DNA of 64,000 nt from Carpediemonas membranifera BICM (Eukaryota; Protista; Fornicata). Below the pieces are notes generated by a model. The model had not been told where the DNA came from. It made no database searches and worked only from the letters and a program-made list of their open reading frames with translations. A program made the translations under genes and the position numbers. The DNA lies in NCBI GenBank assembly GCA_019828565.1, contig JAHDYR010000003.1, forward strand, positions 495,409-559,408, given 5' to 3'. Below, one piece after another: positions 9,863 to 34,420 of the stretch (its first letter is position 1; each line of letters begins with the position of its first letter).

Positions 9863-11581
9863 ATGCTAGACTTGTTCACTTGGCTGGAAGAAGCCACTGA
9901 GTTCGAGAAGAAGGAGCTAATGACCAAGATCAATGCAGCTGCAAGCGCTAAAGGCAAATGCGACGTCCTTCGCGCGCTTTTGCTGCCTAGGCGCGATTTA
10001 CTCGCTACTGTGATCAAGGAACGTACGTTACTGAGCGAAATTGTTTACACAGGTGTTAATCTCAAGCGTATTGCCACGTTCTTCCGCCTCACGCGCCAGG
10101 AGACGGAAGATATGAAGAAGGACCTTAAGGCGCAGTTTATGGCGACGATGAAATTGAATGAGGGTGAAAGGGTCACAGGGGAACACAAGAAAACACTGAA
10201 GCAGGTCCTCGGCGGGGATACCTTCACGCACCTGTACGACGGCGAGGTGGAGAGCGCGCGTATTCGGGTGAAGAAGAGCATTCGTGAGGCTAGAATGAAG
10301 ACAAACGCTAGGCTTGAGTGTGAACTCGCGAAGGAGGAGGACGAGGACATCAGGGATTGTACTCGGGTTCAGATGATGAAGCTGGCCGATGAGGAAGACC
10401 GAAAGGAGTTGGAAAAGGAGATGGAATACACGCGCGAGTCCAAGTATGACGTGGTATGGGAGCGAGTGTACGATGAGATCTGCGGTACTCGTCGTGTGCG
10501 GGCCCGCAGGGATAACGCCCCCTGTCCCGGCGAGGATCACGCCGACCACGTGCTTCAGCGCTATCTCTGGGCCGACCAGATCGATACTCAGGCGCTTACT
10601 GGCGAGAAGACGTTGACCACGAGACTCCCTGCTGAAGCTCGAGTCGTACGTCGCGTGACAGCCAGTCTGATCTCTGCTCAGAAGACGGAGATCCAATCTC
10701 TCAAGGAGCAGGTCGAGCGGCTGAAGAAGCAGGTGACTGACGAGAGAAGAGACCACTTTCTTGAGTGCAGGCGTATCCATCATGAGCATGACGTTGGGTA
10801 CCTTGCTTCCTGCGATGTTTCGTTCGCCGCCAGCCCCATGCCGCCACAGTCTGGCACGCTCTCCAGGACTTCCTGCCCCCGACGCGCTACGAACGAGCCC
10901 GAGGCCTCCATGTCTGTGAAGCGCAAGGCCCTCTTCATCACGCCCGAGAAGGCCAGGCCTGAGGACTCAGAGGAGGAGACAGAGGAGGAGCAGGAGGAGG
11001 CGAAGGAGAAGAGGGGTGAGGCAGAAGAGGAGACGGTGAACACATGCGACGCCTGCATCCAGACTGAGCCGGAGACTCAGACTCGCATCACCTCTGAGGC
11101 CGCGGTGCAGACGTGCATCAACGTGGAGGCTCTCACGACTAACTGTACCGCGATTCATGTCAAGAGTGACGGCAACTGCGTTGCATATTGTCTCCAAGCC
11201 ATTGAGTTGGGTGGCCGAGTTGATGGCGACTTCGAAAAGTGGCAGCGTGGCCTCTGCCAGTCAGTGAAGGCCAAGTACTGGTCTAAGAAGAATGTCACGG
11301 AGCGTAGCCTGACAGATCCGGACTCCGGCTACTATAACTCGAACGCCATCCGAGTCTGGGCAAGGAAGCAGAAGCGGAACATCCTTGTTGTCCAGTCATA
11401 CGACGGATACAACGGCATGCAAGGCATCTCCGCCATCTTATACCTGTTTGATGGCACCACCATGCTTGCACCCGATGCAGACTTGTGGGGGTTGACAGAT
11501 AATTTCGCTATTGTCATCGAAGGCGATCCGGCTCACGCCACGCTGTACCAGAAGAAGTGCGAGGTCGTTGAGATTGAATAA
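9863..11581 (+). CDS. Coiled-coil/acidic protein with C-terminal OTU-like cysteine protease domain
   Basis: VKSDGNCVAYCL (OTU Cys loop), central GYYNSNAIRVWA, His in GDPAHATLY. Confidence 0.7.
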   Translation: MLDLFTWLEEATEFEKKELMTKINAAASAKGKCDVLRALLLPRRDLLATVIKERTLLSEIVYTGVNLKRIATFFRLTRQETEDMKKDLKAQFMATMKLNEGERVTGEHKKTLKQVLGGDTFTHLYDGEVESARIRVKKSIREARMKTNARLECELAKEEDEDIRDCTRVQMMKLADEEDRKELEKEMEYTRESKYDVVWERVYDEICGTRRVRARRDNAPCPGEDHADHVLQRYLWADQIDTQALTGEKTLTTRLPAEARVVRRVTASLISAQKTEIQSLKEQVERLKKQVTDERRDHFLECRRIHHEHDVGYLASCDVSFAASPMPPQSGTLSRTSCPRRATNEPEASMSVKRKALFITPEKARPEDSEEETEEEQEEAKEKRGEAEEETVNTCDACIQTEPETQTRITSEAAVQTCINVEALTTNCTAIHVKSDGNCVAYCLQAIELGGRVDGDFEKWQRGLCQSVKAKYWSKKNVTERSLTDPDSGYYNSNAIRVWARKQKRNILVVQSYDGYNGMQGISAILYLFDGTTMLAPDADLWGLTDNFAIVIEGDPAHATLYQKKCEVVEIE

Positions 11582-12425: not shown

Positions 12426-12899
12426 GCCTCCGTCTTGGCATTTGTTGAGGACAACACAGCTGTAAACGACAATAAGATGAAACAGAAGTAGCAAGCAATG
12501 TTTAATAACGTATGAACAGTCCTTTTGATGTTGTTTAGTGATTTTGTGCATTAACGACCGAGAACAGTGGAGTGCAACGCAGATGTTGGTTATTGATGGT
12601 AGATGGCGCGCTTTTGACGACAGCTGGTTGCTTTTGCAGTATAAAGAACCGCATAGCTGCCACTAGTTCCTTCCAATAATGCTTTCCCGCCATTTTGAGG
12701 TTGGAATGAAATTCCAAGCACCGTGCACTTTATGTAATTGCCCAATATCAACGCCACCCCCGCCCCCAGCGCCTCCACGCCCCACGCCAACGCCACCTCC
12801 GCCCCCCTGGCGCTCAGTTCAGGAGATGTCCGGTCGATAAGCCATAAACTGCACGGATCCACAAACGTGGATTGGCCTGAACGACAGCGCTGAGGCCCA
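12426..12899 (-). repeat. Module M, copy 4
   Basis: Reverse complement of M2. Confidence 0.95.
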
Positions 12900-14460
12900 G
12901 ACATGCACATATACATTCATTTATTCCTGTCTCGCTCTCTTGCCTGTCTGATCGCGACGTTTGACCCACTCAAATGCCTCATCTGTGAGGTAGACAGAGA
13001 CGTCGCGAGTATTCCCAGTCCTAACCTTCCGAATCAACGTTCGGCAAGGATCTTTGGGTGTCGTCGTTGAGGTACGACGGCAAGCCCACTCTGAGGTCTC
13101 GCATGAGCCCCCGCACACGATGCAACGTCCTGACAGGACAAGCGGGGGGTCATGCGTTCTGGCCATAGCTAGCTGGTCCACCTGGCTAGCAGTCAGTGTG
13201 CGGGACATGAGCGTACCGCGCGTCTTGCCCGTGTCTTCGGGCCTGGGCCTCGGCTCATCCAGGTCTCCGACGTCCGAAGTCGTCATCGTTGCCTGCTCCA
13301 AAGTGGTGGGCTCCGGCTGAGACCTGACACCTGGCAGCCTGAGCATGGTCTTACGGCCGCCGCTACGCAGCCTCTCAATCTCATCCTCAAGAATGCTGAC
13401 CTTCTTCGTCAGAGCATGATGTTCACTTGTCGCAACGAGCGACACTGGCGACTTAAGCAGCGCGATGAACGCCCTGACGTTATCGTGCAATGGAACCGAG
13501 AAGGCCTGGGCCAAGCTCTCGACCAGCTCCAGGACCTTGGGCAGGGTGTCGGGCTCAAGCTCATTGTGAGCTGCGCGGTTCCGGTACTCAACGAGATCAC
13601 GAATGATCTTGGCATGGGCTTTGTTGTACGCCGCTCGATTGGACATCTCACGAAGGATTCTTGATGAATCCACGTCCTGTTCGAGCTCTTTGCCGAGGAG
13701 GTCCTTCTCGGTGCTATTGGGCTTGCACCCGGGGTTAAATGCAGGCGAGGCCAAGATCTTCCGCATCCAAGGGACCATCATGGCGAGCAGCTGAAGAACT
13801 CGCGCATTATCGCCAAGGATGCGGAGCTGCTCATCGTTCCATGGTGAAATGAACAGGTGATGATCTTGTCGAGCGGATGATTGCCCTTTGAGAGGTGCTT
13901 GGCGATGCTTAGCGCGATATCGGTCCATCCACAACTGTGGATGACGAGCAATTTAAGGTAGGTGCCGCATCAGTCAATAACCCCGTGCTATCGTGCAATA
14001 GAACACAGTTAACACTGCTTTCCATGCGCAGCAACACAGCCTGTGGCGGAGAGACGCCCGGTATGGACGACACCAGGTGATCCACAAACGTGGATTGGCC
14101 AATTACGTCGGCCCCTCCCATCCCGCATCCCTCAGGATACGCAAGCACAAGCTCTCTCCCTGCAGCACCTCTCTGGCGCTCTCTAAAATCGTCGTATAGC
14201 GTAAACAGAATGTGCCGCATCAGTCATTCGTTCATTTTATTCCACTTATCACTCTTGGTCATCCTCCTCATCACTCACCTCCTCGCGGATACTGACATCA
14301 TCACGAGCCTCGTCATCCGCGAGTGTCAATGGCTCTGTAATAGCGCGGGCAGCGTTGGTATACTCACCGTTGAACTGTCGCTGGCCTCTCTGAATGCGAG
14401 GAAAGCAATTCACGCACACCGGAACACGACGAGAAGGACGCTTCAACATGTCAGTTCCAG
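12520..14460 (-). repeat. Right arm of inverted duplication of 228-2171
   Basis: Direct sequence comparison. Confidence 0.95.
12921..13928 (-). CDS. Swt1-like HEPN-domain protein, copy 2 (intact, ~335 aa)
   Basis: Uninterrupted ORF with the RNRAAH motif. Confidence 0.7.
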   Translation of the reverse strand: MDRYRAKHRQAPLKGQSSARQDHHLFISPWNDEQLRILGDNARVLQLLAMMVPWMRKILASPAFNPGCKPNSTEKDLLGKELEQDVDSSRILREMSNRAAYNKAHAKIIRDLVEYRNRAAHNELEPDTLPKVLELVESLAQAFSVPLHDNVRAFIALLKSPVSLVATSEHHALTKKVSILEDEIERLRSGGRKTMLRLPGVRSQPEPTTLEQATMTTSDVGDLDEPRPRPEDTGKTRGTLMSRTLTASQVDQLAMARTHDPPLVLSGRCIVCGGSCETSEWACRRTSTTTPKDPCRTLIRKVRTGNTRDVSVYLTDEAFEWVKRRDQTGKRARQE

Positions 14461-15063
14461 CCTCCGTCTTGGCATTTGTTGAGGACAACACAGCTGTAAA
14501 CGACAATAAGATGAAACAGAAGTAGCAAGCAATGTTTAATAACGTATGAACAGTCCTTTTGATGTTGTTTAGTGATTTTGTGCATTAACGACCGAGAACA
14601 GTGGAGTGCAACGCAGATGTTGGTTATTGATGGTAGATGGCGCGCTTTTGACGACAGCTGGTTGCTTTTGCAGTATAAAGAACCGCATAGCTGCCACTAG
14701 TTCCTTCCAATAATGCTTTCCCGCCATTTTGAGGTTGGAATGAAATTCCAAGCACCGTGCACTTTATGTAATTGCCCAATATCAACGCCACCCCCGCCCC
14801 CAGCGCCTCCACGCCCCACGCCAACGCCACCTCCGCCCCCTGGCGCTCAGTTCAGGAGATGTCCGGTCGATAAGCCATAAACTGCACGGATCCACAAACG
14901 TGGATTGGCCTGAACGACAGCGCTGAGGCCCAAACAGGTGGTGAGACATTAAAAAGACTCATTTGCAATCCATTTACTCAGTCCTCACCCTCTTACCACT
15001 TGTCTCGATCTCTGAATCATCCTCTATTGTGTTGTCCGCATGCTTCTGCTTTTCGGGCGACTC
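14460..15063 (-). repeat. Module M, copy 5, carrying the 3' tail of the 4495-5427 gene
   Basis: Reverse complement of ~5338-5470 joined to an M2-type module. Confidence 0.95.
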
Positions 15064-15208
15064 TACATGAGTCACCCTTGCAGTGGACGTGGTTGTGGAG
15101 CACCCCCAGTGTCTCCACGTCCGCCACCAGCGCCAGATCCGCCACCATGCCCTACATCAGCACATTTGTGTATTTACTTTGTAAATTTGTCCTATTGCTA
15201 TTGAAGCA

Positions 15209-15813: not shown

Positions 15814-16941
15814 AGATGCTGATATTGCTCATGAAACGACTCTGCTGATCAGCTGGGACTCTACGCGGCGATATGGCATGGCAAGTCTCTACACTTTGGA
15901 GTCAATTCGGTCCCATGGTTCCTACCTTGACCCACGTTGTCTCGCGCGCGCGAGGACTCACTAAAAGGATATATCAACACTGGGAGCAGAAAAAAGGCAC
16001 GGCGAGATGCAGGCGCTGTTGCTGAGCTCATTTTCCGGATAAGACCCGTTTTTGTCACCTCAACCCATTCATATTGGCGGCTGTTGCTTCGTTTTTGATC
16101 AAATCAAATGGAAACCAAAACGAGATCCGGGAAACGAGGATGATTGGGAGAGATAGACACATCATAAGGTCTTTAATATAGTAATGCACCGTCAATGAGA
16201 AGTTCTTGGTTCCTGAAATGGATTATTGATCCCAAACGCTTTTCTTTGAGGATAACGCACTTATAGCGGTGATTTCCACACAATTCATCCAAATACTGAT
16301 CAAAACATCAGAACTGCAAGTAAAATGGGTATAGATCGTTTATCCACGGAGATATCAATTGCTCCCAATCCCAGCTTGCAAGAAAAAAAGTTAAGGGGCT
16401 GTATTGGGGCTTGCACTGATATCTCTATATATGCCGACACAGTCACTGGGCTGCCCATCACTGAACAGCTCTAGCCCAATACAAAAACTTGAGGGCTCGA
16501 AGTTTTGGCCTTCTCGGAAAAGGGTGGCGGAACGCTGCAACACTACAATGCTAATGGACAGAGGGGAGGAAGTGGTCCACTGGTATGTCCTATGGGTCGC
16601 TTCTTCCCCTCTGTCCATTTTTACACGATATCGATTTGCCGGATTTGACACATGTTGTGCGATCTTTAACTCCTCGCGTCCAACCACCTCTCCCAAACGA
16701 TCTGCAAGATCGACCAGCCCCTGGATCACTTGGGCCTGCCTCCGTGCCCGGCCTGTTGCGATCAATGATGGTGATTACTTGCAACGAACGCGATCACCGG
16801 AAATTACCTTACCTTACCTTACCTGCAGGTACCATGGGTGTTCGTTTTCGTCTCCAAACGCCATGGTGTAAGAGCATAAAGTGCATTTTCTGTTTACTGT
16901 GCCGTTGGGGATTGATGGCGCTGGCGTAGGGGTGCTGTGTG

Positions 16942-19036
16942 GGCGCCAGGGATGAGGCGCCAGGGATGAGGGCGCCAGGATGAGGCGCCAGGGATGAGGC
17001 GCCAGGGATGAGGCGCCAGGGATGAGGCGCCAGGATGAGGGCGCCAGGGATGAGGCGCCAGGGATGAGGCGCCAGGGATGAGGCGCCAGGGATGAGGCGC
17101 CAGGGATGAGGCGCCAGGATGAGGGCGCCAGGGATGAGGCGCCAGGGATGAGGCGCCAGGGATGAGGCGCCAGGGATGAGGCGCCAGGGATGAGGCGCCA
17201 GGGATGAGGCGCCAGGGATGAGGCGCCAGGATGAGGGCGCCAGGGATGAGGCGCCAGGGATGAGGCGCCAGGATGAGGGCGCCAGGGATGAGGGCGCCAG
17301 GGATGAGGCGCCAGGGATGAGGCGCCAGGGATGAGGCGCCAGGATGAGGGCGCCAGGGATGAGGCGCCAGGGATGAGGCGCCAGGGATGAGGCGCCAGGG
17401 ATGAGGGGAGCGCCAGGGATGAGGCGCCAGGGATGAGGGCGCCAGGGATGAGGCGCCAGGGATGAGGCGCCAGGGATGAGGGCGCCAGGGATGAGGCGCC
17501 AGGGATGAGGCGCCAGGGATGAGGCGCCAGGGATGAGGGCGCCAGGGATGAGGCGCCAGGGATGAGGGCGCCAGGGATGAGGCGCCAGGGATGAGGCGCC
17601 AGGGATGAGGCGCCAGGGATGAGGCGCCAGGGATGAGGCGCCAGGGATGAGGCGCCAGGGATGAGGCGCCAGGGATGAGGGGCGCCAGGGATGAGGCGCC
17701 AGGGATGAGGCGCCAGGGATGAGGGCGCCAGGGATGAGGCGCCAGGGATGAGGGCGCCAGGGATGAGGCGCCAGGGATGAGGCGCCAGGGATGAGGCGCC
17801 AGGGATGAGGCGCCAGGGATGAGGCGCCAGGGATGAGGCGCGCCAGGGATGAGGCGCCAGGGATGAGGCGCCAGGGATGAGGCGCCAGGGATGAGGCGCC
17901 AGGGATGAGGCGCCAGGGATGAGGCGCCAGGGATGAGGGCGCCAGGGATGAGGCGCCAGGGATGAGGCGCCAGGGATGAGGGCGCCAGGGATGAGGCGCC
18001 AGGGATGAGGCGCCAGGGATGAGGGCGCCAGGGATGAGGCGCCAGGGATGAGGAGCGCCAGGGATGAGGCGCCAGGGATGAGGCGCCAGGGATGAGGAGC
18101 GCCAGGGATGAGGCGCCAGGGATGAGGCGCCAGGGATGAGGCGCCAGGGATGAGGCGCCAGGATGAGGCGCCAGGGATGAGGCGCCAGGGATGAGGCGCC
18201 AGGGATGAGGCGCCAGGGATGAGGCGCCAGGGATGAGGCGCCAGGGATGAGGGCCAGGGATGAGGGATGAGGGATGAGGCGCCAGGGATGAGGGAAGCGC
18301 CAGGGATGAGGCGCCAGGGATGAGGGCAGGATGAGCGCCAGGGATGAGGCGCCAGGGATGAGGCGCCAGGGATGAGGCGCCAGGGATGAGGCGCCAGGGA
18401 TGAGGCGCCAGGGATGAGGCGCCAGGGATGAGGCGCCAGGGATGAGGCGCCAGGGATGAGGCGCCAGGGATGAGGCGCCAGGGATGAGCGCCAGGGATGA
18501 GGCGCCAGGGATGAGGCGCCAGGATGAGGCGCCAGGGATGAGGCGCCAGGGATGAGGCGCCAGGGATGAGGGCGCCAGGGATGAGGGCGCCAGGGATGAG
18601 GCGCCAGGGATGAGGCGCCAGGGATGAGGCGCCAGGGATGAGGCGCCAGGATGAGGCGCCAGGGATGAGGCGCCAGGGATGAGGCGCCAGGGATGAGGGC
18701 GCCAGGGATGAGGCGCCAGGGATGAGGCGCCAGGGATGAGGCGCCAGGGATGAGGCGCCAGGGATGAGGCGCCAGGGATGAGGCGCCAGGGATGAGGCGC
18801 CAGGGATGAGGCGCCAGGGATGAGGCGCCAGGGATGAGGCGCCAGGGATGAGGCGCCAGGGATGAGGCGCCAGGGATGAGGCGCCAGGGATGAGGCGCCA
18901 GGGATGAGGCGCCAGGGATGAGGGCGCCAGGGATGAGGGCGCCAGGGATGAGGCGCCAGGGATGAGGCGCCAGGGATGAGGCGCCAGGGATGAGGCGCCA
19001 GGGATGAGGCGCCAGGATGAGGGCGCCAGGGATGAG
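16942..19036 (+). repeat. Minisatellite (GGCGCCAGGGATGA)n, 14 bp unit, ~150 copies
   Basis: Directly visible; only ~6 units in homologous blocks at ~25752-25836 and ~28439-28523. Confidence 0.98.
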
Positions 19037-19049
19037 GAGTACAGTATTT

Positions 19050-19390
19050 GAACCCCGAAAACGCCATATTACCAGCACCAATGAGCTTCATCAACGAAGA
19101 TGCGCTCACTGGTGCCGGTTATGGCGTTTTCGGGGTTCGTCGATCATTCTGCTCCCAAATCTGCACCTGTATTTTCGTGAGCATGCCCGGGAGCTGGGCC
19201 AGACGAGTGGTGCCACAGGGACTAAGCTCCGCTGCTCAGCCTCTGCCAGGCGACACTCGTCTGAATTCTGCACGAAAAAATTCAGACGACGAATGATGGG
19301 CAAAGGGCCGCGAAAACGCTGAAGTACCAGCGCAAGTAGAGCGGTTTGCAATAAAATAGCTTACTTGCGCTGGTGCTGGCGTTTTCGGGG
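19050..19390. other. Nested inverted repeats (dyad-symmetry core of a large imperfect palindrome)
   Basis: Four CCCGAAAACGC-type boxes in alternating orientation; ATCATTC/GAATGAT, TTTTCGTG/CACGAAAA and CAGACGAGTG/CACTCGTCTG nested around ~19230. Confidence 0.85.
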
Positions 19391-19401
19391 CCCTGAATTG
19401 C

Positions 19402-19597
19402 CCCGGGCGCTCTCCCGGGCTTCTCTCTCCCGGGCTCCTCTCTCCCGGGCTCCTCTCCCCCGGGCTCCTCTCCCCCGGGCTCCTCTCCCCCGGGCTCCTC
19501 TCTCCCGGGCGCTCTCCCGGGCTCCTCTCCCCCGGGCTCCTCTCTCCCGGGCGCTCTCCCGGGCTCCTCTCTCCCGGGCTCTATCCTCCGGGGCTCC
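19402..19597 (-). repeat. Minisatellite (CCCGGGCTCCTCTCT)n, ~13 copies
   Basis: Directly visible; reverse complement (GAGGAGCCCGGG) resembles the 14-mer (GAGGCGCCAGGG). Confidence 0.9.
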
Positions 19598-19689
19598 TGT
19601 CCCCAGCGCTGTTTCCCAGGCGCTCTGCTCTCTCCAGCGTCCTCACTCGTAAATGTACGTTGCTGTCTTGTCTGCTTGATCTGATTTCA

Positions 19690-20640: not shown

Positions 20641-22029
20641 TTACTTCTGGTGCTTTTCCTGCTCTCTCTTCTCCATCAGGTCGTCATACTCGGCCCTCGT
20701 CAGCCTCACAGTTGTCATCCCGGCATCACGGATGTGCTCAAAGGCCTCAACGGGCAGCTTCGGCATCCCGTCGTCGCTGTCGCTGCTGCTGCCCAAGTCT
20801 GACTCGCTCTCGTGATAGCGGCGAAGGCGAATGCGTCTGCTGGGCTCCCTGGTCTTCATAGAGTCATAGAGCGGAGCGAGCCCACTTCCATTGGTCCCGC
20901 TACGGACACCCTCATCGGTATCTCTCTCAGACATATCACACTCAACCTGTTGTGACTGAACAAATGACAGGTTGTCGACGAGGCTATCCTCGGCATCGCT
21001 GTCTGAACTCTCCTCATCCTCCCACTCTCCTTCCAGCATCTCCAACCCGGCCTCATCGTCAGACTCGCCCTCCACCGCGGTCTCCGGCATCTCTGCCTCG
21101 CCAGCTGTCTCGTCAAACAGCGCCTCATCGTCAGACTCCCCCTCCCCCGTGTCGCCCCCCTCGGGCTTACGCTGGTCGTGGAGTTGGACCATCCTCATCC
21201 TGAGCTTTTTGTAAAGCCAGTCATCGAGCGTCGGCGGCACCAGGTCGGCAGAGCTTCGGATCTCCGGGTTGAGATCGAGGATCGTTGGGCGTCGCGTGGT
21301 CGTTAAGTGACTGGACGCCAACTGGCGCCTGAACTGCTCATCGGTCAGGCTGATGCGCTTGTCCTTAATGACCTTACGAACCTTGGTCGGATCCCTGGGC
21401 CTGCCAGTCCGTCTCTGTGTCTCAATCACCCGCTTCTTGAGCTGATTGAGATCGACATGCACAGTGGGCGCATAGCGAAGCTGGTTAACACTCAGCCCGA
21501 CCGACTTGAGAGCCTGCGAGAAGGTGCTAGGCATCACAGCGGACATCGCGGATGGTGCCCCGGTGAATAGCAACCAGTCAGCGAGTTCCGGGGGAATCTG
21601 GAGCTCGCTCACATCAATATCGCGGGCTGATGTGGCAGTCATGCCTGTGTGGCTGATGATAAGAGCCAGCGCATTGTAGGGGAAGACTAGTCGGACAATA
21701 GCTTCCGATGCGACAGGCTCAAACTGCCCAAGCGGCTTGACATTGTCTCTGCCGGAGTTTCGGAATGAGTTGACGGCACTGAGAGTGACAGCAGCGGTTG
21801 CCTTGCTCAATGATGCAGCAAAACCGGGCACAAGCGATCTAACCTCCTCGGACCGGATCACGGAGAGCGCTTCGTCCTCGGTACTCCCTCGCTCACGTTG
21901 TACGAATTGAACGAACCGCGAAAGGTTGTTTGCGGCCGCTTTCCGGGAAGATTTCTTGCTGATGGTGCACAACCAAGCATTCTTCACGTCTTGAATGCTT
22001 GTTTCCATCTCCCGCGGGCTTCCTTCCAT
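20641..22029 (-). CDS. Catalytically dead tyrosine-recombinase-fold protein 2 (462 aa) with GRP motif and acidic tail
   Basis: NLSRFVQF...SKATAAVTLSAVNSFRN core-binding pattern; ALALIISHTGMT; VNQLRYA; LASSHLTTTRRP. Confidence 0.65.
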   Translation of the reverse strand: MEGSPREMETSIQDVKNAWLCTISKKSSRKAAANNLSRFVQFVQRERGSTEDEALSVIRSEEVRSLVPGFAASLSKATAAVTLSAVNSFRNSGRDNVKPLGQFEPVASEAIVRLVFPYNALALIISHTGMTATSARDIDVSELQIPPELADWLLFTGAPSAMSAVMPSTFSQALKSVGLSVNQLRYAPTVHVDLNQLKKRVIETQRRTGRPRDPTKVRKVIKDKRISLTDEQFRRQLASSHLTTTRRPTILDLNPEIRSSADLVPPTLDDWLYKKLRMRMVQLHDQRKPEGGDTGEGESDDEALFDETAGEAEMPETAVEGESDDEAGLEMLEGEWEDEESSDSDAEDSLVDNLSFVQSQQVECDMSERDTDEGVRSGTNGSGLAPLYDSMKTREPSRRIRLRRYHESESDLGSSSDSDDGMPKLPVEAFEHIRDAGMTTVRLTRAEYDDLMEKREQEKHQK

Positions 22030-22030
22030 C

Positions 22031-22360
22031 GATATACGGATTTCAGACTTTCGTCATGCACAAAAATTCGAATCTCTCCAAATGCCCAAAACAGTGGTCA
22101 AACCGTGTTCAGGGGTACAATAGAGTGCCATAGGCACGTTCTTGCATTTCAAAATATTCTAGAGGTCGTTCATAAATTCTCAGATGGCCAACAGTACGAA
22201 AGTCTGAAATCCATTTATCATGAGACCCGACAAATTTGAAATCCATTTATCGGGTGGATACATCACTGTAGAGGGTATTCATGGATATAGGTGCCTTTTC
22301 GGTGCCGAGGGGAGTCAACATTTGAGGTCGTGCAGGCAGAAAGTCTGAAATCCGTATATC
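22031..22360. promoter_or_regulatory. Triplet of cognate sites upstream of pseudo-recombinase 2
   Basis: 22031-22052 is the perfect reverse complement of 22339-22360 (GAAAGTCTGAAATCCGTATATC); further copy at ~22198-22219. Confidence 0.75.
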
Positions 22361-22486
22361 TCATCACTGCTTATAGATCCTGGCAGACAACGCCTTCTTG
22401 GCAACGCCTGAGGTGTAAGGATTCGCTTGCCTCTGTGTTGTCGCATCAGCTTCGCTGAAAACGGGTGAACTGACCCGCGCATTCGC

Positions 22487-22980
22487 GCACTTTATGCTCG
22501 CAACGAGACCGAAATGACGAACTGAAGAATAGGAAGAATACTGGCGGCTTTAACGATACAGGCATGCACATATCACTAAGAAACATCAGTAAGCGAGCGC
22601 AGAGCATCATTAAAGCAACAATTATCCCTAAACAACATCAACAACTATAAGTCCATCAGGACCATATGATATGAACTATAAATGGAGCACTGATCAGTAT
22701 AGATGATTTGAGAGTACCAGGCATGGCCAGAATACCGCAATACTCGCCCGTTGATCCACGTGACCTCCATCTTGGTCGGTATCCAGAGAACGCCCGTCAG
22801 ACGCTTGCAACGGAACATTTAGGGGGTGCATCCTAAATGGGTCCAGATTTGAGGCACCCTTGGTCTGACATGCCATGACCGAGCACTCTAGGGGCCTCCA
22901 CAGTGCGTCCCGAGGTACGTTAGAGCACCACAGACCTTCCCCCAAAAGCTGACTCCTGGACCCCTTGGCCGGAGCTCGCC
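22487..22980 (+). repeat. Module N, copy 2
   Basis: Similar to 9092-9588. Confidence 0.85.
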
Positions 22981-23265
22981 CGAAGCGTGCCTCGGCTTGA
23001 ACTAACGGCAAGAGAGCATAAAATCAGCCCTTTCGAACCGTGTTTTATGCTCTGCTGCCGTTATAGAATTATTCAAAGGGCCCTCTCTTTGCGCTTTTTT
23101 TCTGGTTCGTGGGACGAAGTAGGGACGGACAAAAAAAGCACATACGGAAGGTATTGGAGGTACTGAGGCCGCCTAGGTACATAGTTGCCATGTGGATGGT
23201 TTCAGTTTATTACTTTTGGCACTCTATGTCCATTTTTTTATGCTCTCTTGCTGATAGTGCCGAAC

Positions 23266-24980
23266 ATGGACTTGCTAAAGTGGATTGAGAGCGCTAGCAA
23301 GGAACAGTACGATGCGATATTGGCTGCATACACCAAGGCAACCACCAATCATGCCAAATGTGCTGTCCTTCGCGCGGTTTTGCTGGATGAACGGAAACTG
23401 CTCGATCTAGTCATCAGGAAGCGTTTGTAGTCATAGCAATGCTTATATAGGAATCAACCTGAACCATATCACCACGAAATTCCGCCTCACGAAGGACGAG
23501 AAGGAGGAGCTCCATGATAAGTTGAAGAAGCAGTTTATGGCACTCGCCGGACCAAGAAGTTCCAAGAAGCTCGGCGCGCTGGCGAAGTGGGTTGACGACA
23601 ACCAGGCTGATATCGTGTATAGCCAGGGAGAAGCGCAAGGCGCGTAAGGCCATTATTGAGGCCATTGACGCCGAGGAGAAGGACAAGGGCAAGGGCAAGG
23701 CCGAGAGCGCTAAGAAAGAACCCGTCGACGATGAGAGTGGCGTGGACAGTGGTGAAGAGAGCGGCGTCGACGATTCTGAGTTGTGCGACAGTGAGAGTGA
23801 GGTGGACTTTGACAACGAGTCCGACGATGAGATTAGAGAACGCGCGATCAAGCGCCGGCGCGAGAGAAAGATCGCCCAGAAGCTCAAGGAGTGGGAGGAC
23901 AATAACGCTCGCAACTACGTCCTGTGGCATAGAGTCCAGAAGGAGGTGCACGGCGAGCTTCGCATTCGCGCCTCTCGAGAGTCAGCTTCGGTTGCTGGGG
24001 ACAACCACGTCGACGTCCAGTTCGACAGATACCTTCGCGTATCCAAGCTGCTCGAAATGAAGGACTGGATTCACAAAGACCTCCCATCTCTTCCGATGGA
24101 GGCACGAGTGCTCCATCACAAGGCGCAGAAGAGAGTACTCGAGCTGGAGGAGACCGTCACGAGGCTGCTGCAAGACGTGGGGTACGCAGCTGACATCTCC
24201 ATGGGTGCCAGCCCGACACCCGCGCCGTTTCGCCGCGACCTACCCCAGTCGGGCACACACCAAGCACGAACGAGTACCCCCCGCCGTACGGGGAAGAGCG
24301 ACACAATCCACATGAAGCGCAAGGCCCTCATGACAATCCCTCAGAAGATCGCTGATGTCGATAGCAACTCAGAGGAGTCAGACGAGGAGGAGGTGGTGAC
24401 AGAGGAGAGGAAGGGTGAGTCACATGAGGAGGACGTGACCAAATGCGACGCCTGCATCCAGACTGAGCCGGAGACTCAGACTCGCATCACCTCTGAGGCC
24501 GCGGTGCAGACGTGCATCAACGCGGAGGCTCTCACGGCTGGCTGTACCGCGATTCATGTCAAGAGTGACGGCAACTGCGTTGCATATTGTCTCCAAGCCA
24601 TTGAGTTGGGTGGCAGAGTTGATGGCGACTTCGAAAAGTGGCAGCGTGGCCTCTGCCAGTCAGTGAAGGCCAAGTACTGGTCTAAGAAGAATGTCACGGA
24701 GCGTAGCCTGACAGATCCGGACTCCGGCTACTATAACTCGAACGCCATCCGAGTCTGGGCGAGGAAGCAGAAGCGGAACATCCTTGTTGTCCAGTCATAC
24801 GACGGATACAACGGCATGCAAGGCATCTCCGCCATCTTATACCTGTTTGATGGCACCACCATGCTTGCACCCGATGCAGGAATGTGGGGGTTGACAGATA
24901 ATTTCGCTATTGTCATCGAAGGCGATCCGGCTCACGCCACGCTGTACCAGAAGAAGTGCGACGTCGTTGAGATTGAATAA
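23266..24980 (+). CDS. OTU-like protease paralog 3 (frameshifted at ~23420-23600)
   Basis: N-terminus MDLLKWIE..KCAVLRAVLL aligns with the 9863 protein; OTU domain nearly identical. Confidence 0.65.
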
Positions 24981-26122
24981 AGATTTGGATATGCCCGTGT
25001 AGCCAGCGGTTCATGACCTGCAGCAGACATTTGGACGTACAGCGGGATACCACATCAATTAGGTCACTTGCGGGCTAAGATTGTCGTTGTCGATCGTCAT
25101 TCACCGGAGGAGCAGGCCAGAGTCACTTGCCATCTGGCGCATCATGAGGAGATATTGGAATGTGATGATGTGTTTATTGACTAAATGAGCTGGAATTAGG
25201 CGGGTTTGATGTTGCTTACATGCTCTGTGGCATGCCTGATGTCCAAAGATGTATTTTGGCACAGTGATGTTGTTTAGTGTGCTCATTGCTGACCGCATAG
25301 TTATCTGACTTCAATGTGTCGTGTTGATGCCAAGAAATCGATGGTAGCTCGCACGTTTGAGGTAGTTGCTTGTTGCATCGATGCAACGCACTTTAAGGAT
25401 TAACCACCTGCACCCCATAGCCGTTTCCTAAGGCCAGATACGGTCCTCTGTAGCGTATATACACGCGTGAATTGGGACTAGATGGGACTAGATGCAGTGT
25501 TGTGGCATGATCTGCAAGATCGACCAGCCCCTGGATCACTTGGGCCTGTCTCCGTGCCCGGCCTGTTGCGATCAATGATGGTGATTACTTGCAACGAACG
25601 CGATCACCGGAAATTACCTTACCTTACCTTACCTGCAGGTACCATGGGTGTTCGTTTTCGTCTCCAAACGCCATGGTGTAAGAGCATAAAGTGCATTTTC
25701 TGTTTACTGTGCCGTTGGGGATTGATGGCGCTGGCGTAGGGGTGCTGTGTGGGCGCCAGGGATGAGGCGCCAGGGATGAGGGCGCCAGGATGAGGCGCCA
25801 GGGATGAGGCGCCAGGATGAGGGCGCCAGGGATGAGGAGTACAGTATTTGAACCCCGAAAACGCCATATTACCAGCACCAATGAGCTTCATCAACGAAGA
25901 TGCGCTCACTGGTGCCGGTTATGGCGTTTTCGGGGTTCGTCGATCATTCTGCTCCCAAATCTGCACCTGTATTTTCGTGAGCATGCCCGGGAGCTGGGCC
26001 AGACGAGTGGTGCCACAGGGACTAAGCTCCGCTGCTCAGCCTCTGCCAGGCGACACTCGTCTGAATTCTGCACGAAAAAATTCAGACGACGAATGATGGG
26101 CAAAGGGCCGCGAAAACGCTGA

Positions 26123-27027
26123 TATCAGTCTCACAGCCTCCCTTCATGCATATAGTCTGCTTCTCAGCGTTTGAACAGAGCTCACAGACGGTGAACGTCT
26201 TGTCATTGTTGTTCTTGTCCTTGCGAGTGACCGTCGAAAAGCTATCATCCTCTGTGTCGGAACTAGCCCCGCGACACCTCACAGATTCTGTGGACGAACC
26301 TGTGGCAGAAGTCGCACTCTAAGACAGTTTCGTCTGTTCTACCGTCAACGAAGAAGAGGCCACGTAAGTCTGCGCAGTAAGGGCAACACTTGCGGAGGCT
26401 GTTCTTCCACATCTTGGCAGTGCTGCCCATGAAGTATTCCGCGTCGGAAGCGCCTGGGTTCGTGCTCCTAAACTGCTCAGTCATGTGGTTCATGGCCTCA
26501 ATCATCTCAGCGACGTTGGCACCGTTGACTGACGAAGCTTGCATTGCACGCGTGGAGTCAACGGACATAGTGGGCTGCTCAGCGGTCTGAACAGTGGGGT
26601 GGGGGGTGGGGACGGCAGGATTGCGGCGCGGCTGGCACACCCGGAAGGCTCTTTGGGAGCTGTCGAGCTTGGAATTTCGCAAATGATCAATTTCAGCGTC
26701 AGTGAGGGTTACAAGCTGGCTGAGTCCGGCTATCAATGCGGCACGCCCTGTATCTGTCGCGTGAATTCCTTGGTAGATGCCCTTCGTGTTAGGAGAGAGT
26801 TTGCGGCCAGCAAGGTTCTCGATAGCCTTGGGTACTGACCTCATGAAGTCCTACTTGCGCGGCATGCGCTCTAGAATAGTTTTTGGGAGGATTGCAAGGA
26901 TGGCATCCGCGATGGAGCGACAATCGCATTTCGTGCTTCTCTCTTCCCAACGATAGCATGTTGCGATGATTGTGTGCACAATATCACGCACAGTATCTCT
27001 TGAAAGCCGCTCCTGGTCTTCTACCAT
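26123..27027 (-). pseudogene. PHD-finger gene, copy 1 (in-frame TAG at 26851-26853, frameshift near 26268, 3' end joined to a repeat block)
   Basis: CPYC...LECDFCHRFVHRIC...CELC matches C4HC3. Upstream ATG 27027 is in frame. Confidence 0.65.
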
Positions 27028-27082
27028 ACTGCCCCCCTTTTGTGGGGGTGTAAAAAAAACTGAGTGCAGTTTTAAGTTGGAA

Positions 27083-27298
27083 ATGGAATCCTACAGGTAT
27101 AGAGACTATTACGAAGAGATAGGAACCGTTATAGCTGCAATTGATGCAATATTAGCGCATCCAGGACTGTGGGCGGTAGCAGAGCGTGCTGGAATGGATA
27201 GATTAGCAAGAGCGAAGGACTTACTCAATATAGAGCAAGAAAGGGCCAAATGCGGGATTCCGCCATCAAGTTCAGAAGAGTACAGTGATTCACAGTAA
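27083..27298 (+). CDS. Small hypothetical protein (71 aa), divergent from the PHD gene; duplicate at ~29769-29984
   Basis: ATG ORF starting ~55 bp from the divergent PHD ATG. Confidence 0.35.
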   Translation: MESYRYRDYYEEIGTVIAAIDAILAHPGLWAVAERAGMDRLARAKDLLNIEQERAKCGIPPSSSEEYSDSQ

Positions 27299-28809
27299 AC
27301 CGTAGCGATCTATTGAGTTATATTCAGTTCTGGCCATGTTCGGCTTTTCCGGAATGTCAAAAATTTGACACGTCCATTTCTCCAAATTGCTGATTGCCAA
27401 CGCTAGACCAGACATGCCAGGCTGTAGTACACGTGCTATACTACAACGTGGTGGTTCTGGTTTGCCGTTGGCAATCAGCAATTTCGAGAACAGACAAACT
27501 TCTTTTGCGATTTTTGCAACTTCTGGAGCATATATCATTTGGTACAGACCCAGCCACGCAATAAAAACGCATAGCGTGGCTTAACATGGTCGGAACTATC
27601 CTAAAAAAGTTTGCGGTAAATATTGAGTAAATATTTAATATAGATCTCGAGATTTAACGTCCCTTAGGTAGCCCTTGGATGCAAACATCCGCCCAGTAAA
27701 TTTTGCTGTACAGCTCTAGCCCAATACAAAAATATGAGGGCTCGAAGTTTTGGCCTTCTCAGAAAAAGGTGGCAGTATACTGCTACTTTTCTTTGCTTGA
27801 GTAGCTGTATTACACCCCCTCCAGACAGCATGGAGGAGATATTGGAATGTGATGATGTGTTTATTGACTAAATGAGCTGGAATTAGGCGGGTTTGATGTT
27901 GCTTACATGCTCTGTGGCATGCCTGATGTCCAAAGATGTATTTTGGCACAGTGATGTTGTTTAGTGTGCTCATTGCTGACCGCATAGTTATCTGACTTCA
28001 ATGTGTCGTGTTGATGCCAAGAAATCGATGGTAGCTCGCACGTTTGAGGTAGTTGCTTGTTGCATCGATGCAACGCACTTTAAGGATTAACCACCTGCAC
28101 CCCATAGCCGTTTCCTAAGGCCAGATACGGTCCTCTGTAGCGTATATACACGCGTGAATTGGGACTAGATGGGACTAGATGCAGTGTTGTGGCATGATCT
28201 GCAAGATCGACCAGCCCCTGGATCACTTGGGCCTGTCTCCGTGCCCGGCCTGTTGCGATCAATGATGGTGATTACTTGCAACGAACGCGATCACCGGAAA
28301 TTACCTTACCTTACCTTACCTGCAGGTACCATGGGTGTTCGTTTTCGTCTCCAAACGCCATGGTGTAAGAGCATAAAGTGCATTTTCTGTTTACTGTGCC
28401 GTTGGGGATTGATGGCGCTGGCGTAGGGGTGCTGTGTGGGCGCCAGGGATGAGGCGCCAGGGATGAGGGCGCCAGGATGAGGCGCCAGGGATGAGGCGCC
28501 AGGATGAGGGCGCCAGGGATGAGGAGTACAGTATTTGAACCCCGAAAACGCCATATTACCAGCACCAATGAGCTTCATCAACGAAGATGCGCTCACTGGT
28601 GCCGGTTATGGCGTTTTCGGGGTTCGTCGATCATTCTGCTCCCAAATCTGCACCTGTATTTTCGTGAGCATGCCCGGGAGCTGGGCCAGACGAGTGGTGC
28701 CACAGGGACTAAGCTCCGCTGCTCAGCCTCTGCCAGGCGACACTCGTCTGAATTCTGCACGAAAAAATTCAGACGACGAATGATGGGCAAGGGCCGCGAA
28801 AACGCTGAT

Positions 28810-29714
28810 ATCAGTCTCACAGCCTCCCCTTCATGCATATAGTCTGCTTCTCAGCGTTTGAACAGAGCTCACAGACGGTGAACGTCTTGTCATTGTTGTT
28901 CTTGTCCTTGCGAGTGACCGTCGAAAAGCTATCATCCTCTGTGTCGGAACTAGCCCCGCGACACCTCACAGATTCTGTGGACGAACCTGTGGCAGAAGTC
29001 GCACTCTAAGACAGTTTCGTCTGTTCTACCGTCAACGAAGAAGAGGCCACGTAAGTCTGCGCAGTAAGGGCAACACTTGCGGAGGCTGTTCTTCCACATC
29101 TTGGCAGTGCTGCCCATGAAGTATTCCGCGTCGGAAGCGCCTGGGTTCGTGTTCCTAAACTGCTCAGTCATGTGGTTCATGGCCTCAATCATCTCAGCGA
29201 CGTTGGCACCGTTGACTGACGAAGCTTGCATTGCACGCGTGGAGTCAACGGACATAGTGGGCTGCTCAGCGGTCTGAACAGTGGGGTGGGGGGTGGGGAC
29301 GGCAGGATTGCGGCGCGGCTGGCACACCCGGAAGGCTCTTTGGGAGCTGTCGAGCTTGGAATTTCGCAAATGATCAATTTCAGCGTCAGTGAGGGTTACA
29401 AGCTGGCTGAGTCCGGCTATCAATGCGGCACGCCCTGTATCTGTCGCGTGAATTCCTTGGTAGATGCCCTTCGTGTTAGGAGAGAGTTTGCGGCCAGCAA
29501 GGTTCTCGATAGCCTTGGGTACTGACCTCATGAAGTCCTACTTGCGCGGCATGCGCTCTAGAATAGTTTTTGGGAGGATTGCAAGGATGGCATCCGCGAT
29601 GGAGCGACAATCGCATTTCGTGCTTCTCTCTTCCCAACGATAGCATGTTGCGATGATTGTGTGCACAATATCACGCACAGTATCTCTTGAAAGCCGCTCC
29701 TGGTCTTCTACCAT
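28810..29714 (-). pseudogene. PHD-finger gene, copy 2 (same lesions)
   Basis: Tandem duplicate of 26123-27027. Confidence 0.65.
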
Positions 29715-30419
29715 ACTGCCCCCCTTTTGTGGGGGTGTAAAAAAACTGAGTGCAGTTTTAAGTTGGAAATGGAATCCTACAGGTATAGAGACTATTACGA
29801 AGAGATAGGAACCGTTATAGCTGCAATTGATGCAATATTAGCGCATCCAGGACTGTGGGCGGTAGCAGAGCGTGCTGGAATGGATAGATTAGCAAGAGCG
29901 AAGGACTTACTCAATATAGAGCAAGAAAGGGCCAAATGCGGGATTCCGCCATCAAGTTCAGAAGAGTACAGTGATTCACAGTAAACCGTAGCGATCTATT
30001 GAGTTATATTCAGTTCTGGCCATGTTCGGCTTTTCCGGAATGTCAAAAATTTGACACGTCCATTTCTCCAAATTGCTGATTGCCAACGCTAGACCAGACA
30101 TGCCAGGCTGTAGTACACGTGCTATACTACAACGTGGTGGTTCTGGTTTGCCGTTGGCAATCAGCAATTTCGAGAACAGACAAACTTCTTTTGCGATTTT
30201 TGCAACTTCTGGAGCATATATCATTTGGTACAGACCCAGCCACGCAATAAAAACGCATAGCGTGGCTTAACATGGTCGGAACTATCCTAAAAAAGTTGGC
30301 GGTAAATATTGAGTAAATATTTAATATAGATCTCGAGATTTAACGTCCCTTAGGTAGCCCTTGGATGCAAACATCCGCCCAGTAAATTTTGCTGTACAGC
30401 TCTAGCCCAATACAAAAAT

Positions 30420-32515
30420 ATGAGGGCTCGAAGTTTTGGCCTTCTCAGAAAAAGGTGGCAGTATACTGCTACTTTTCTTTGCTTGAGTAGCTGTATTACA
30501 CCCCCTCCAGACAGCATGGACATGGGAGTTCGCCTTGGAATTCACACTCCACCGGTGGTAGACAGTCTCCAGAATCTTGGGTATGACCTGCTGTCCATCC
30601 CAGCCATACGATCTGTTATATCAGACCCAACACTGATCGAGGACGTCAACGCGTTCACTCCTGAGCAGCCCGATGTCTCTGGGCGTGATGGGGTGTCTAA
30701 CCAAGAGCTTCAATGTCAAGCAGGAGCCGGTTTCACGCGTAGCGTGGAAGTCGCGGAGGCTTTTTACGTCCTATATGACCCAACCACCCACACCGACCTG
30801 CAAGAGACTCTCGATGAACACGACTGCCTCTTCGCTCACCACTTCGAGAAGATATCGGGGGAGTCACGGCTATACATTTCGCATGATGATCCATCCAAGC
30901 TGCCGGAGATTCAGAGATTATGCCGGAACATGGGCATCATTCCGCGTGGAACAAAGAAATCTCACCGGATGGTGATCAGCGCTCTGTCCTATGACCCTGT
31001 CGCCCAGATTAAGTTCATGCTGAAGTTCCCCGACCGAGTTCAGCGCGATATCAAGTCAAGCAAGTTCGTTCAATCCGTCACTATTAACCCGGAGAGCCGA
31101 CAGGAGGCTTATGGTCTTGAGATGCTCCTATGGTTTGATGGATATCGGGCCGACTGTACGGCGGTCAAATATCGCATAATTGATCGCGAGGGAGCAGCCC
31201 TACCACAGAAGATTACCCCACCCATGACGCTTCTTACATTTCAGGGCACAGAGAAGCTCATTCCTTCGTTCTTTGATGATGTACAGCGGCTAATGAACAA
31301 GCTCATTGGTATCCCCTTCGCATGTGGTGACAGTTCGTTGCTCCCACGCAGCCGTGTTGTCATCAGCCTGCTCGGGATCTGCGGCGATCACAAAGCGTTG
31401 CAGATTGTTAGTGGCGTCAAGCGGGGACGATACTACCGCTCTCCATTCTCCTCCCTACACATGGGAAAGGTCGCAAGTGACCCGTTTGCCAATCGTTGCG
31501 ATCGCTGGACAATCGCAGATAGCATCTTATGAAGGACTTCTGGACGCTGCTTGGCCTTGTCAAGGTTCAACACGCTGGTCAGAACGTGCAAACACTTGAG
31601 CAGATTGAAAAGCTGTTCACGCGGACAACTGGCTGCAACGAGCAGAGCTGGAACAGACGAAAGCTCGCGACACTAGTCAACGAGCACCTTGAGGAGTTTG
31701 ACCAGTCACTCCAGCCCTTCATACTCCTTACAGCCAAGTTACAGGCGTTGTATTACTCCTCTGACCACGTGACACACCAGACAATCGCTTTCCATCACGC
31801 GGCGTCCTTTTCTACGTTCATCATGTTCCATGTCTTGACTTTGTTCTATGACCTTCCATCGAGTCGCTCCTCGGTTGCTACGACGCTCAATGATGGTCTC
31901 AGACTGACTTACTCTCCCAAGTTTACCGGCTCGCTATATCTGAATGCAGTGGTGTCAGTTCTGCCCAAGGTTCACTCGAAACTGCGGCTTCCGATGTTCT
32001 ATTTGCTTGAGGAGTACTTCGAACGTGATTTCCTCATCAATGCCCAGTTGCGAGTGGACAAGCATCGATCTTGGGTTCTCGGCTTCCTGGCTCAGAAGAC
32101 AATGGTCGGTCGTGTCCTTGCTCACTACACCCGCCGTGGCTCATCGAGAAAGCATGGTATGGTGTTGCCGATTGCAAGGCAGTGTAAGTCTGTCACATTC
32201 TGCTCGTGTCTATTTGATGCCGACCGGTGTGCCGCCTGGAGAAATCGTCTATTAACTAAGGTACCCAACTGGGATAGGGAGGCGAGCCAACAGTCGCTGA
32301 ATGCGCTGTTTAGTGGATGGGTCAAGGGTATCTGTGAGGAGCCGGAGGAGATCCGGGAACTCATCACTGTTGACGAGACAGCCAAGACGATTTGTGTAAG
32401 GACGGCGGACAGTGGTCTGGATGAGACTCTCTGCATCTGCAATCTGTGCAACAGTGAGCAGCGAGCGGAGGAGCTGATGAGGAGGACTGGGCACAATCTT
32501 CGCCCGAGAAGATAG
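30420..32515 (+). CDS. Putative DDE transposase, RAG1/Transib/Chapaev-like (one frameshift at ~31529)
   Basis: MLLWFDG (D1), LLTFQGTE, GICGDHKALQIVSG..YY (D2; cf. RAG1 GTGYDEKLVREVEGL), YLNAVVSVLP...LLEEYFE (E). Adding one A joins the two ORFs as ...SILMKDFW. Confidence 0.5.
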
Positions 32516-34295
32516 ATAGATGGATAATCGGAGTATGTATATAAAGGGTTCTTTATGTTTACACTATCTTCACCAATCTACAGTCAATTACGTCTATTGC
32601 GAGCGAAGAACAGCTTTCAGTAAGAAATTTGAGGCAACTGTCAGGTAATTCTTAGTAACGTCGTCGGCAATGACGTAATAGTCATCCATTTCAGTCAAGT
32701 GACTCAGCTTAACGCGCATTTGCTTGATTTCGGCGATAAACTCGGCCCGCTTCATTCGTTTGTCATAAAGTGCATTCCGGCCATATCACAAGTTTTCTTC
32801 ATCACAAGGCACGCACGGGGGTGTAAGCGGGACCGAGGCTACCACCACAGCCTCTTCTGAGCCGATGGATACCTTTTGTTGATTTGCCAGAATTGACCAA
32901 ACGACGAGGAATGCTTGATATGCCGCGTATGGATGATTTGAAGAAGAACTGAAGGTGAAAGACAAAGATCATAGAAATATACATCATGCGGCTCACTTTT
33001 TGGAGACATTGGAGGGAAATTAGCTTTTAGGATCGTTTTTCGTTTGCCAGGCAAAGTTTTGAGTGTTTTCTCGAGAATACTCGATGCCGTATGCAATCTT
33101 GCTGCTATTTGATGCAGAACAAAGGTTGTTATGTGACACAGATGTTCTCACTTGCTTTCGGCCTTCTTTGTTGGCGAGCAAAAGCAAACTTCTTTGGGAG
33201 CAATTCCCAAAAATCGCATCTTTACGCACCCAGGAAATTTTATCTCGGCATACTGGACCAGTGGGGGAGGCACGGCAGTCTATCCCGACCCTAGATGAAC
33301 CATGAGACAGTTTTTCGACGAGAGTTTGTGCGATGCCACTGACTTCGCGAGTGAAGGTCTTCAGCATGTTGTACGGATGTCTAAACGATGCCTTGTGCAA
33401 GTGCAAGGCGTAATACGCTGTAGTTTAATTGTTTGAGCGCGTTCATTTTTTCTTGCAATCGTCCTTTTTTCATGTATTCCGGGACTTATTCCGGGACTTA
33501 AAGTCCCGGTTAAAGTACCAGAAAAAACAGCATGGACTGACTCCCGCTACCATGACACACTCATCAAACACCAGACAGACGACTCTACCGTCTCCAAGCT
33601 GACCGTAGACAGCGACGGTCTTCGCCGCAAGGACGGCATCGTCGTCATCCCTACTTCAACCGTGTGCAGACCCCTCCGAAAGGAGCTGATACAGATCGCC
33701 CACAGAGGACACCACGGCGCCAAGGCTACCATCGAACGCCTGAGAGCAGACGGCTATACCTGGACAGGCTGCACAGCAGATGTCGAGGAGTTCATCGCCT
33801 CATGTGACGAGTGCCAGAAAGCTCGCCTACGCAACTTCGCCGAGGCAGAGCTCCGCACAACAGCAGTGTACAAACCGTTCCACACTGTCGCAGTGGATAC
33901 TATTGGTCCAATCCCGGCAGACGCAGTCGGCTCCAGATACATCACAGTTATGGTCGATATGTTTACTCGCTACACTGAGTTGGCCGCGACGGACGAGAAC
34001 ACAGCTGATGCAGCGTCAGAGGCCCTCTGGCGCCAGGTGATTACCCGTCATGGGACTCCCCTGTTCATCAAGTCCGACAACGGGCCTGAGTTCACCGGCA
34101 ACGTCGTCAAGGCCCTGCTCGAAAGCGCGGACATCACAAAGCAATTCACCCTCCCCTATCACCCTCAGTCGAATGGGCTGGTAGAGCGTCGTAACGCGGA
34201 GGTCATGAAGCATCTTCGCTGTTTGATCCTCCAATTCGACAAGTTCTCCCGTTGGAGCGATCTCCTTCCGGTAGTTCAGCTGCTGCTGAACACAA

Positions 34296-34420
34296 TGTGG
34301 CAGTGTGCCAATCAAATATTTTATTTGATTGGCGATTCGATCCGCCATTCCGGTCGACACTGTTGTGTCGACTTCTCTTTGACTAAAGCACCAAGTTGTT
34401 TTTCCGTCCTCTCGAGCACA
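34296..34420 (+). repeat. 5' LTR
   Basis: Matches 38628-38752. Confidence 0.97.

Follow-up and report, generated by a model that had tools for sequence, protein, structure and literature searches.

Why does one 22-bp word stand four times, once in one direction and three times in the other, directly in front of a gene that resembles a recombinase? The question is raised by a locus in a 64,000-nt window of the Carpediemonas membranifera genome (the window being the whole stretch of DNA that was analysed), where the word and the gene are arranged as follows:

22031-22052, minus strand: site 1, 22 bp, proximal to the start codon and facing the opposite way to sites 2 to 4
22198-22219, plus strand: site 2, 20/22 identical to site 1
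22230-22251, plus strand: site 3, 16/22 identical, 32 bp after site 2
22339-22360, plus strand: site 4, complementary to site 1 at all 22 positions and 109 bp past site 3
20641-22029, minus strand: gene 1, encoding a dead tyrosine-recombinase part, a kleisin segment and an acidic tail

Sites 1 and 4 form a perfect 22-bp inverted repeat with 286 bp between them, and the repeat extends imperfectly to 31 nt at 90%. Among 1000 dinucleotide shuffles of 21900-23300, the longest perfect inverted repeat was 15 bp and was reached in 1 of 1000, and 30 shuffles of the whole window also gave perfect repeats of at most 15 bp. The perfect pair, the internal third copy, the partial fourth near 22237 and the one-versus-many orientation had all been proposed in the initial annotation, and all are borne out, with site 2 as the third copy and site 3, whose 15-mer TGAAATCCATTTATC starts at 22237, as the fourth. 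The repeat had further been placed 2 bp from the ATG. It does lie beside the first in-frame ATG of gene 1 (22027-22029), at one base and not two, while the second in-frame ATG (22006-22008) is 22 bases away; public gene calls of gene-1 paralogs start at either of these or at a third.

The sites are asymmetric, with a self-complementarity of 12/22 in sites 1 and 4. A matrix built from eight sites, four from this array and four from the paralogous array described below, scores its own sites at 25.7 to 35.1 and the next match in the 64 kb at 14.7, and within the window the word is found only in front of copies of gene 1. There are no coding cassettes between the sites, where the longest stop-free frame is 68 codons, and a degenerate site pattern gave 0 matches in viral contigs. 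A 330-bp MITE-like mini-element with terminal inverted repeats was considered and rejected, as the flanks show a 2-bp TC match in copy 2 of the array and none in copy 1, and no stand-alone copy occurs in the window.

The other array of the window provides a direct comparison:

8647-8977: paralogous four-site array, with sites at 8647-8668 (minus strand) and at 8815-8836, 8847-8868 and 8956-8977 (plus strand)
7796-8674, minus strand: gene 1 of the paralogous module, a type-B copy with 40% identity and a frameshift near 7885

Both arrays share the one-versus-three layout, with inter-site spacings of 167, 32 and 109 bp here and 168, 32 and 109 bp in the paralog, whereas three neighbouring non-site intervals differ between the modules by 5, 10 and 9 bp. 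Neither this shared layout nor the kleisin segment described below features in the initial annotation. Identity between the arrays is 122/235 (52%) in the spacers and 60/88 in the sites, and 9 of the 22 site columns are invariant across all eight sites. The perfect pair is made of sites 1 and 4 here and of sites 1 and 2 (24 bp) in the paralog, where two central bases set site 1 apart from site 4; what is conserved is therefore the geometry together with the word, and not one exact pair. Columns 17 and 21 differ between the paralogs in all 4 + 4 sites, and the N-terminal domain of the gene-1 protein differs between the same two paralogs. We infer that word and protein drift together between subfamilies, although with two readable arrays (n = 2) such co-variation is equally expected from gene conversion among the sites.

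These sites could also be relics: an ancestral element with an active tyrosine recombinase may have used them for recombination or as arm-type sites, and only duplication and gene conversion would keep them now. The recombinase ancestry of gene 1, the frameshifts in both window modules and the mosaic paralogs, which show frequent exchange, all fit such a history. It leaves the geometry, held within 1 bp at 52% spacer identity, hard to account for, and the many full-length paralogous ORFs, together with a kleisin segment that is intact in 22 of the 23 records examined, suggest selection; we consider this reading improbable.

Alternatively, the repeats may act in RNA, with a long 5' leader in which site 1, by pairing with site 4 or alternatively with site 2, hides or exposes the start codon. 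The leader folds with z-scores of -3.2 (copy 2) and -5.4 (copy 1), and 0 of 100 shuffles were as stable, but any inverted repeat yields such scores. Columns 17 and 21 change in a compensatory manner, and 6 of the 7 mismatches that are transitions could pair as G-U on the gene-1 transcript strand (6 of all 19 site mismatches, against 1 on the other strand), which is a mild hint; the pairing is nevertheless broken by 12 of the 19. Exact spacings of 32 and 109 bp are superfluous for RNA pairing, and site 3 pairs poorly yet stays in place. The mechanism also requires a leader of 170 to 330 nt, and leaders in related fornicates are very short. An RNA switch is thus unlikely, if somewhat less so than relic sites.

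The layout itself invites comparison with a DNA switch. In the R64-type shufflon, asymmetric inverted sites are set one against many beside a recombinase-family gene, much like the array here, and the initial annotation had likened the locus to a shufflon or invertible switch. In such a scheme a recombinase acting in trans would flip the DNA between site 1 and sites 2 to 4 and turn the presumptive promoter on or off, for which the perfect 22-bp pair here and the perfect 24-bp pair in the paralog would be suited. Unlike the R64 shufflon, the locus has no intact recombinase, no alternative orientations are seen, and nothing that could serve as a coding cassette lies between the sites. Both window arrays are in the same orientation, and five of six type-B records begin with MYEILKLQYQQ (the sixth is uninformative), a start that is encoded only if site 1 has its assembled inner flank, so those five are in the assembled orientation as well; an assembly gives the majority state only, and rare inversion may still occur. 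The two central bases that differ between sites 1 and 4 of the paralog also stand against exchange between its outer pair. The remaining argument concerns the protein encoded by the adjacent gene, the relevant parts of which are:

21409-22008, minus strand: recombinase-derived part (about aa 1-200), of which aa 1-97 form a core-binding fold
21648, minus strand: Box I-like motif TGMT
21486, minus strand: Box II-like motif NQLR

Gene 1 encodes 462 residues from the first ATG or 455 from the ATG at 22008. An AlphaFold2 model from a 7-row alignment is confident only over about the first 90 residues (pLDDT 73 to 93 by ten-residue block), and residues 95 to 275 are mostly below 50. In a structure comparison (VIA), tyrosine recombinases or proteins derived from them account for 14 of the top 16 rows, and the other two are unlabelled structural-genomics domains; the first clearly unrelated row is rank 17, at Z 5.8. 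The best Z, 8.5, falls in the range where helical bundles match by chance, and the phage repressors SroF and MrpR and the yeast protein Ndc10 score 8.3, 6.4 and 7.2. Foldseek places XerA first and XerD fourth, neither of them significant, and returns nothing at E<=0.001, while matches in the ESM Atlas at 0.94 to 0.95 include recombinase clusters. Alignment of the family to an 11-sequence XerD-like profile with hhalign gives an E of 4e-4 at a probability of 36, and Pfam yields nothing above threshold on gene 1.

Of the R-H-R-Y catalytic set, only the second arginine is kept in the family. Box I reads TGMT or TGWE (one TGWK), and the catalytic arginine is missing from 21 of 21 full-length records, a count that depends on a low-confidence placement of Box I by relaxed hhalign (global hhalign put Box I on the Box II region). 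Box II, aligned by eye, reads NQLR or RMLR, so that the histidine of HxxR is missing in 22 of 22 records, none of which has a tyrosine 15 to 55 residues past Box II. These counts omit P0010 and the truncated P0007, P0012, P0028 and P0029, and P0016 is counted for Box II only. By comparison, the Box I arginine and HxxR are present in 11 of 11 reference recombinases. The core site of an active tyrosine recombinase is described as 6-8 bp flanked by two arms of 11-13 bp in inverted orientation (PMC3212892), and the asymmetric sites of the array do not fit that architecture. No catalytically intact relative was found among 1.84 billion representatives at E<=0.001.

With the catalytic arginine, histidine and tyrosine missing, the gene-1 protein likely cannot invert DNA; it is likely recombinase-derived and is predicted not to cut DNA. 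The name pseudo-recombinase given to it in the initial annotation is supported by the core-binding fold and the lost residues, and the idea that protein-binding sites lie upstream of the gene gains support as well, in the form of predicted sites. The invertible switch, which would need a catalytic tyrosine or an intact relative and a second orientation, and whose outer pair is non-identical in the paralog, is left unsupported, and we regard it as very unlikely.

Reuse of dead recombinases as DNA-binding proteins is already known. Like gene 1, the SPbeta-like phage repressors SroF and MrpR (YopR) have a tyrosine-recombinase fold that has lost catalysis, and they act on a long repeated operator in intergenic DNA, as is predicted here. 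SroF is described as a catalytically dead protein that recognises its operator of 24-26 bp in monomeric form (bioRxiv 10.1101/2025.11.27.690993), and MrpR is described as binding a repeated element (PMC10516654). In contrast to both, gene 1 belongs to a eukaryote, its C-terminal part is a kleisin segment, and its sites are clustered before its own gene. Eukaryotic parallels are found in Ndc10/Cbf2, Gcr1 and the DUF3504 genes, which are described as domesticated Crypton recombinases whose catalytic site is gone (PMC3212892), and it is the DNA-binding domain of Ndc10 that matches gene 1 in the structure comparison. Unlike Ndc10 and other Crypton-derived genes, which are conserved single-copy host genes, gene 1 exists in 25-plus copies in one species, several per contig. 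Crypton elements themselves are described as having 4-6-bp terminal direct repeats at their ends (PMC3212892). Pfam searches of 11 gene-1 members for the Crypton domains DUF3504 and GCR1_C gave no match at E<=5, the family being very divergent, and a PDB sequence search for homology to SroF, MrpR or Ndc10-type proteins gave 0 matches at E<=10. Gene 1 likely works in the manner of the SroF, MrpR and Ndc10-type binders, a likeness that is put forward for function only.

On the strength of the geometry shared by two modules, the recombinase-type fold assignment, the lost catalytic residues and the kleisin match, we read the four 22-bp words as operator sites for the dead-recombinase/kleisin protein of the adjacent gene, a reading to which we would assign a probability of roughly 55%. 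A single monomer would occupy each asymmetric site, using its core-binding domain and what remains of the catalytic domain, in the way of SroF. Site 1 covers the likely transcription-start region, and its occupation could result in negative autoregulation. Sites 2 and 3, which are 32 bp or about three helical turns apart, may join with site 4 in a looped or phased complex.

What such a complex might do is suggested by the C-terminal part of the protein:

21172-21372, minus strand: segment of kleisin origin (aa 213-279), sharing 62% identity with host protein P0011 and 38% with the annotated Rad21-like P0013

In a search across 1.84 billion representatives, P0011 (E 1.7e-24) and P0013 (E 3e-6) are the only matches beyond the gene-1 family. 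The foreign segment starts where the catalytic tyrosine would be expected, so that about 70 kleisin residues take the place of the C-terminal catalytic part, and the captured block is the best conserved block between the two host kleisins. Similarity of P0011 and P0013 to gene 1 is limited to this middle segment, and it is all that gene 1 has in common with Rad21/Rec8 kleisins. Rad21_Rec8_N is absent from gene 1, present in P0013 (1.8e-7) and weak in P0011 (0.0096). As gene 1 lacks both the Smc3-binding N-terminus and the Smc1-binding C-terminus, its product cannot close a cohesin ring. By these comparisons gene 1 and its array do not qualify as an active recombinase, a complete kleisin or a MITE, nor, with one orientation seen, as a shufflon. 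P0011 (J8273_2889) lies beyond the window and is unannotated; it shares N-terminal, middle and C-terminal blocks with P0013 in addition to its weak Rad21_Rec8_N match and is likely a second kleisin. It is missing from the Rad21/Rec8 rows of the supplement to PMC8516963.

The captured block lies at roughly 50-65% of kleisin length, which corresponds to the Scc3-binding position of Scc1. The tentative assignment to Scc3 binding leans on this position and on a resemblance. Yeast Scc1 is described as binding Scc3 through residues 319-327 and 349-393 (PMC4175184), and the contact is also given as 309-400 (PMC6120753); the STAG gene of C. membranifera is listed as J8273_8643 (PMC8516963 supplement). 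PDB sequence searches with P0013, P0011, a gene-1 family profile and a kleisin-segment profile returned no solved kleisin, and a search with P0013 returned only P0013 itself. More speculatively than the operator reading, the captured piece may recruit the host Scc3/STAG subunit of cohesin and dock it at the array, or may titrate it.

To our knowledge, Rep1 and Rep2 of the yeast 2-micron plasmid are not kleisin fusions, and their STB system offers no more than an analogy for the kleisin segment. The plasmid is selfish, and its proteins are described as bringing cohesin to the STB repeat locus (PMC2174020). Evidence for an episome, for an origin or for a functional Flp-like enzyme is absent in the present case. 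It is conceivable, although doubtful, that a selfish, genome-wide module has built its own cohesin anchor from a dead recombinase, a phased array and a stolen kleisin segment that plants Scc3/STAG. With similar caution, the array could be an Ndc10- or STB-like chromosome-organising site in a eukaryote without ORC and most kinetochore subunits.

The predicted operator sites have a counterpart on the far side of the locus, where a divergent gene carries repeats of its own:

22487-22989, no strand: conserved non-coding core between divergent genes 1 and 2, 93% identical to 9094-9595
23000-23022, minus strand: gene-2 arm site a, a different 23-bp word
23044-23066, plus strand: gene-2 arm site b, separated from site a by 21 bp
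23237-23259, plus strand: gene-2 arm site c, just upstream of the ATG at 23266
23266-24980, plus strand: gene 2, the divergent partner, in three frames here
9617-11581, plus strand: paralogous gene-2 arm, with sites at 9617-9639 (minus strand), 9660-9682 and 9839-9861, and an intact 572-aa gene at 9863-11581

The layout of this arm is kept in both modules (an inverted pair 20-21 bp apart and a third site at the ATG), and its 23-bp word is pseudo-palindromic and unlike the gene-1 word. Perfect inverted repeats of at least 13 bp within 600 bp number 14 in the window, all of them in 2.4-30.2 kb. Together, the second array and these repeats raise the possibility that repeats are a general feature of the region and that the sites serve another binder, be it a host factor, the product of gene 2 or some further protein encoded in the repeat region, with gene 1 merely downstream. 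That gene 2 owns a conserved array, and that long inverted repeats are common across 1-30 kb with none of at least 13 bp in 30.2-64 kb, would be in keeping with this. It is harder to reconcile with a word that occurs in the 64 kb only in front of gene-1 copies and changes with the gene-1 subfamily, or with type-A gene 1 being paired with two gene-2 types. Further, the N-terminus of gene 2 has no ESM Atlas match, and its AlphaFold2 model, of low confidence at pLDDT 51, gives no DNA-binding call. We judge another binder to be unlikely, though less so than an RNA switch. The gene-2 family (P0032-P0044) is modular, with three N-terminal types, a common acidic linker and several OTU-protease-like C-termini; the C-terminus of gene 2 itself is, by eye, what we take to be OTU-protease-like, with no Pfam match.

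The core between the two genes is 93% identical between modules though its flanks are at about 50%, and it could be a shared bidirectional promoter, an origin or a crossover region. It shows no unusual folding (z 0.21), and Rfam gave no match in the whole window. Public contigs do not extend over either array; on one that spans the core, depth is 21.5, against 1.6 to 5.6 for other pieces, a figure that is not a copy number.

Relatives of gene 1 fall into 9 clusters with 25 sequences, all from C. membranifera, and the family, which divides into subfamilies A, B and C, amounts to 25 records and two fragments on 15 contigs; the assembly is given as 69 contigs (PMC8516963). The gene-1/gene-2 pair recurs at four adjacent locus-tag pairs elsewhere with subfamilies mixed, and type-A gene 1 stands next to one gene-2 type at locus tags 0002/0003 and 5860/5861 and next to another at 8434/8433; from these pairings, arms appear to have been exchanged across the core. 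Records that match gene 1 (455 aa) and the paralogous gene 2 (572 aa) exactly belong to contigs that differ in length, suggesting that a letter-identical copy exists elsewhere. Searches of viral and metagenome contigs gave 19 and 516 pattern matches, none of them confirmed, and PHROGs gave nothing useful. The module is probably a selfish, dispersed repeat of the Carpediemonas genome, and its spread would require another enzyme or ectopic recombination. A centromere with one site per chromosome was also considered and is weakened by four records on one contig with widely spaced locus tags.

Should the protein bind Scc3/STAG as well as the array, cohesin would have a direct, sequence-specific tether built of mobile-element parts, in an organism whose segregation and replication machinery is described as an open question (PMC8516963). 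The interest of the locus lies mainly in the kleisin capture and the conserved geometry. In the literature searched, with most subscription journals outside its scope, we found no fusion of a recombinase with a kleisin middle segment in about 25 copies with a fixed array; searches on Carpediemonas tyrosine recombinases, on its transposable elements and repeats and on captured kleisins found no description of the module; and among the matches listed in the viral-element literature, none names Carpediemonas.

The first 30 kb of the window, in which both modules lie, is a repeat mosaic. One repeat, 400-570 bp long with 89-99% identity, occurs at 1787-2171, 3596-4125, 5328-5853, 12426-12903 and 14460-15076, where it adjoins ORFs that are unrelated and takes either orientation, much as a cassette spacer would. 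Additional perfect inverted repeats of 13-19 bp with loops of 23-63 bp are found at 16553-16619, 19050-19138, 19304-19394, 25850-25938, 27384-27484, 28537-28625 and 30070-30170. A long 14-bp G-rich minisatellite fills 17000-19030 and is reduced to a few units where it recurs at 25750 and 28440; a C-rich array of 15-bp units follows at 19400-19600. Larger duplications are present in tandem (25146-30520, 2.69 kb, 99.8%) and inverted (228-2171 against 12520-14460, 1.95 kb, 99.3%). Cargo-like ORFs include one at 2209-2922 that is SET-domain-like by eye with no Pfam match, a protein kinase at 5962-7137 (4e-23), a weak HEPN match at 12921-13928 (0.013) and a weak PHD finger at 26263-26844 (0.039). 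Beyond the mosaic, an LTR retrotransposon with RT, RNase H and integrase (33662-38752), bearing identical 125-bp direct repeats at 34296 and 38628, is apparently inserted into another integrase ORF, and a second RT-bearing element occupies 42010-46669.
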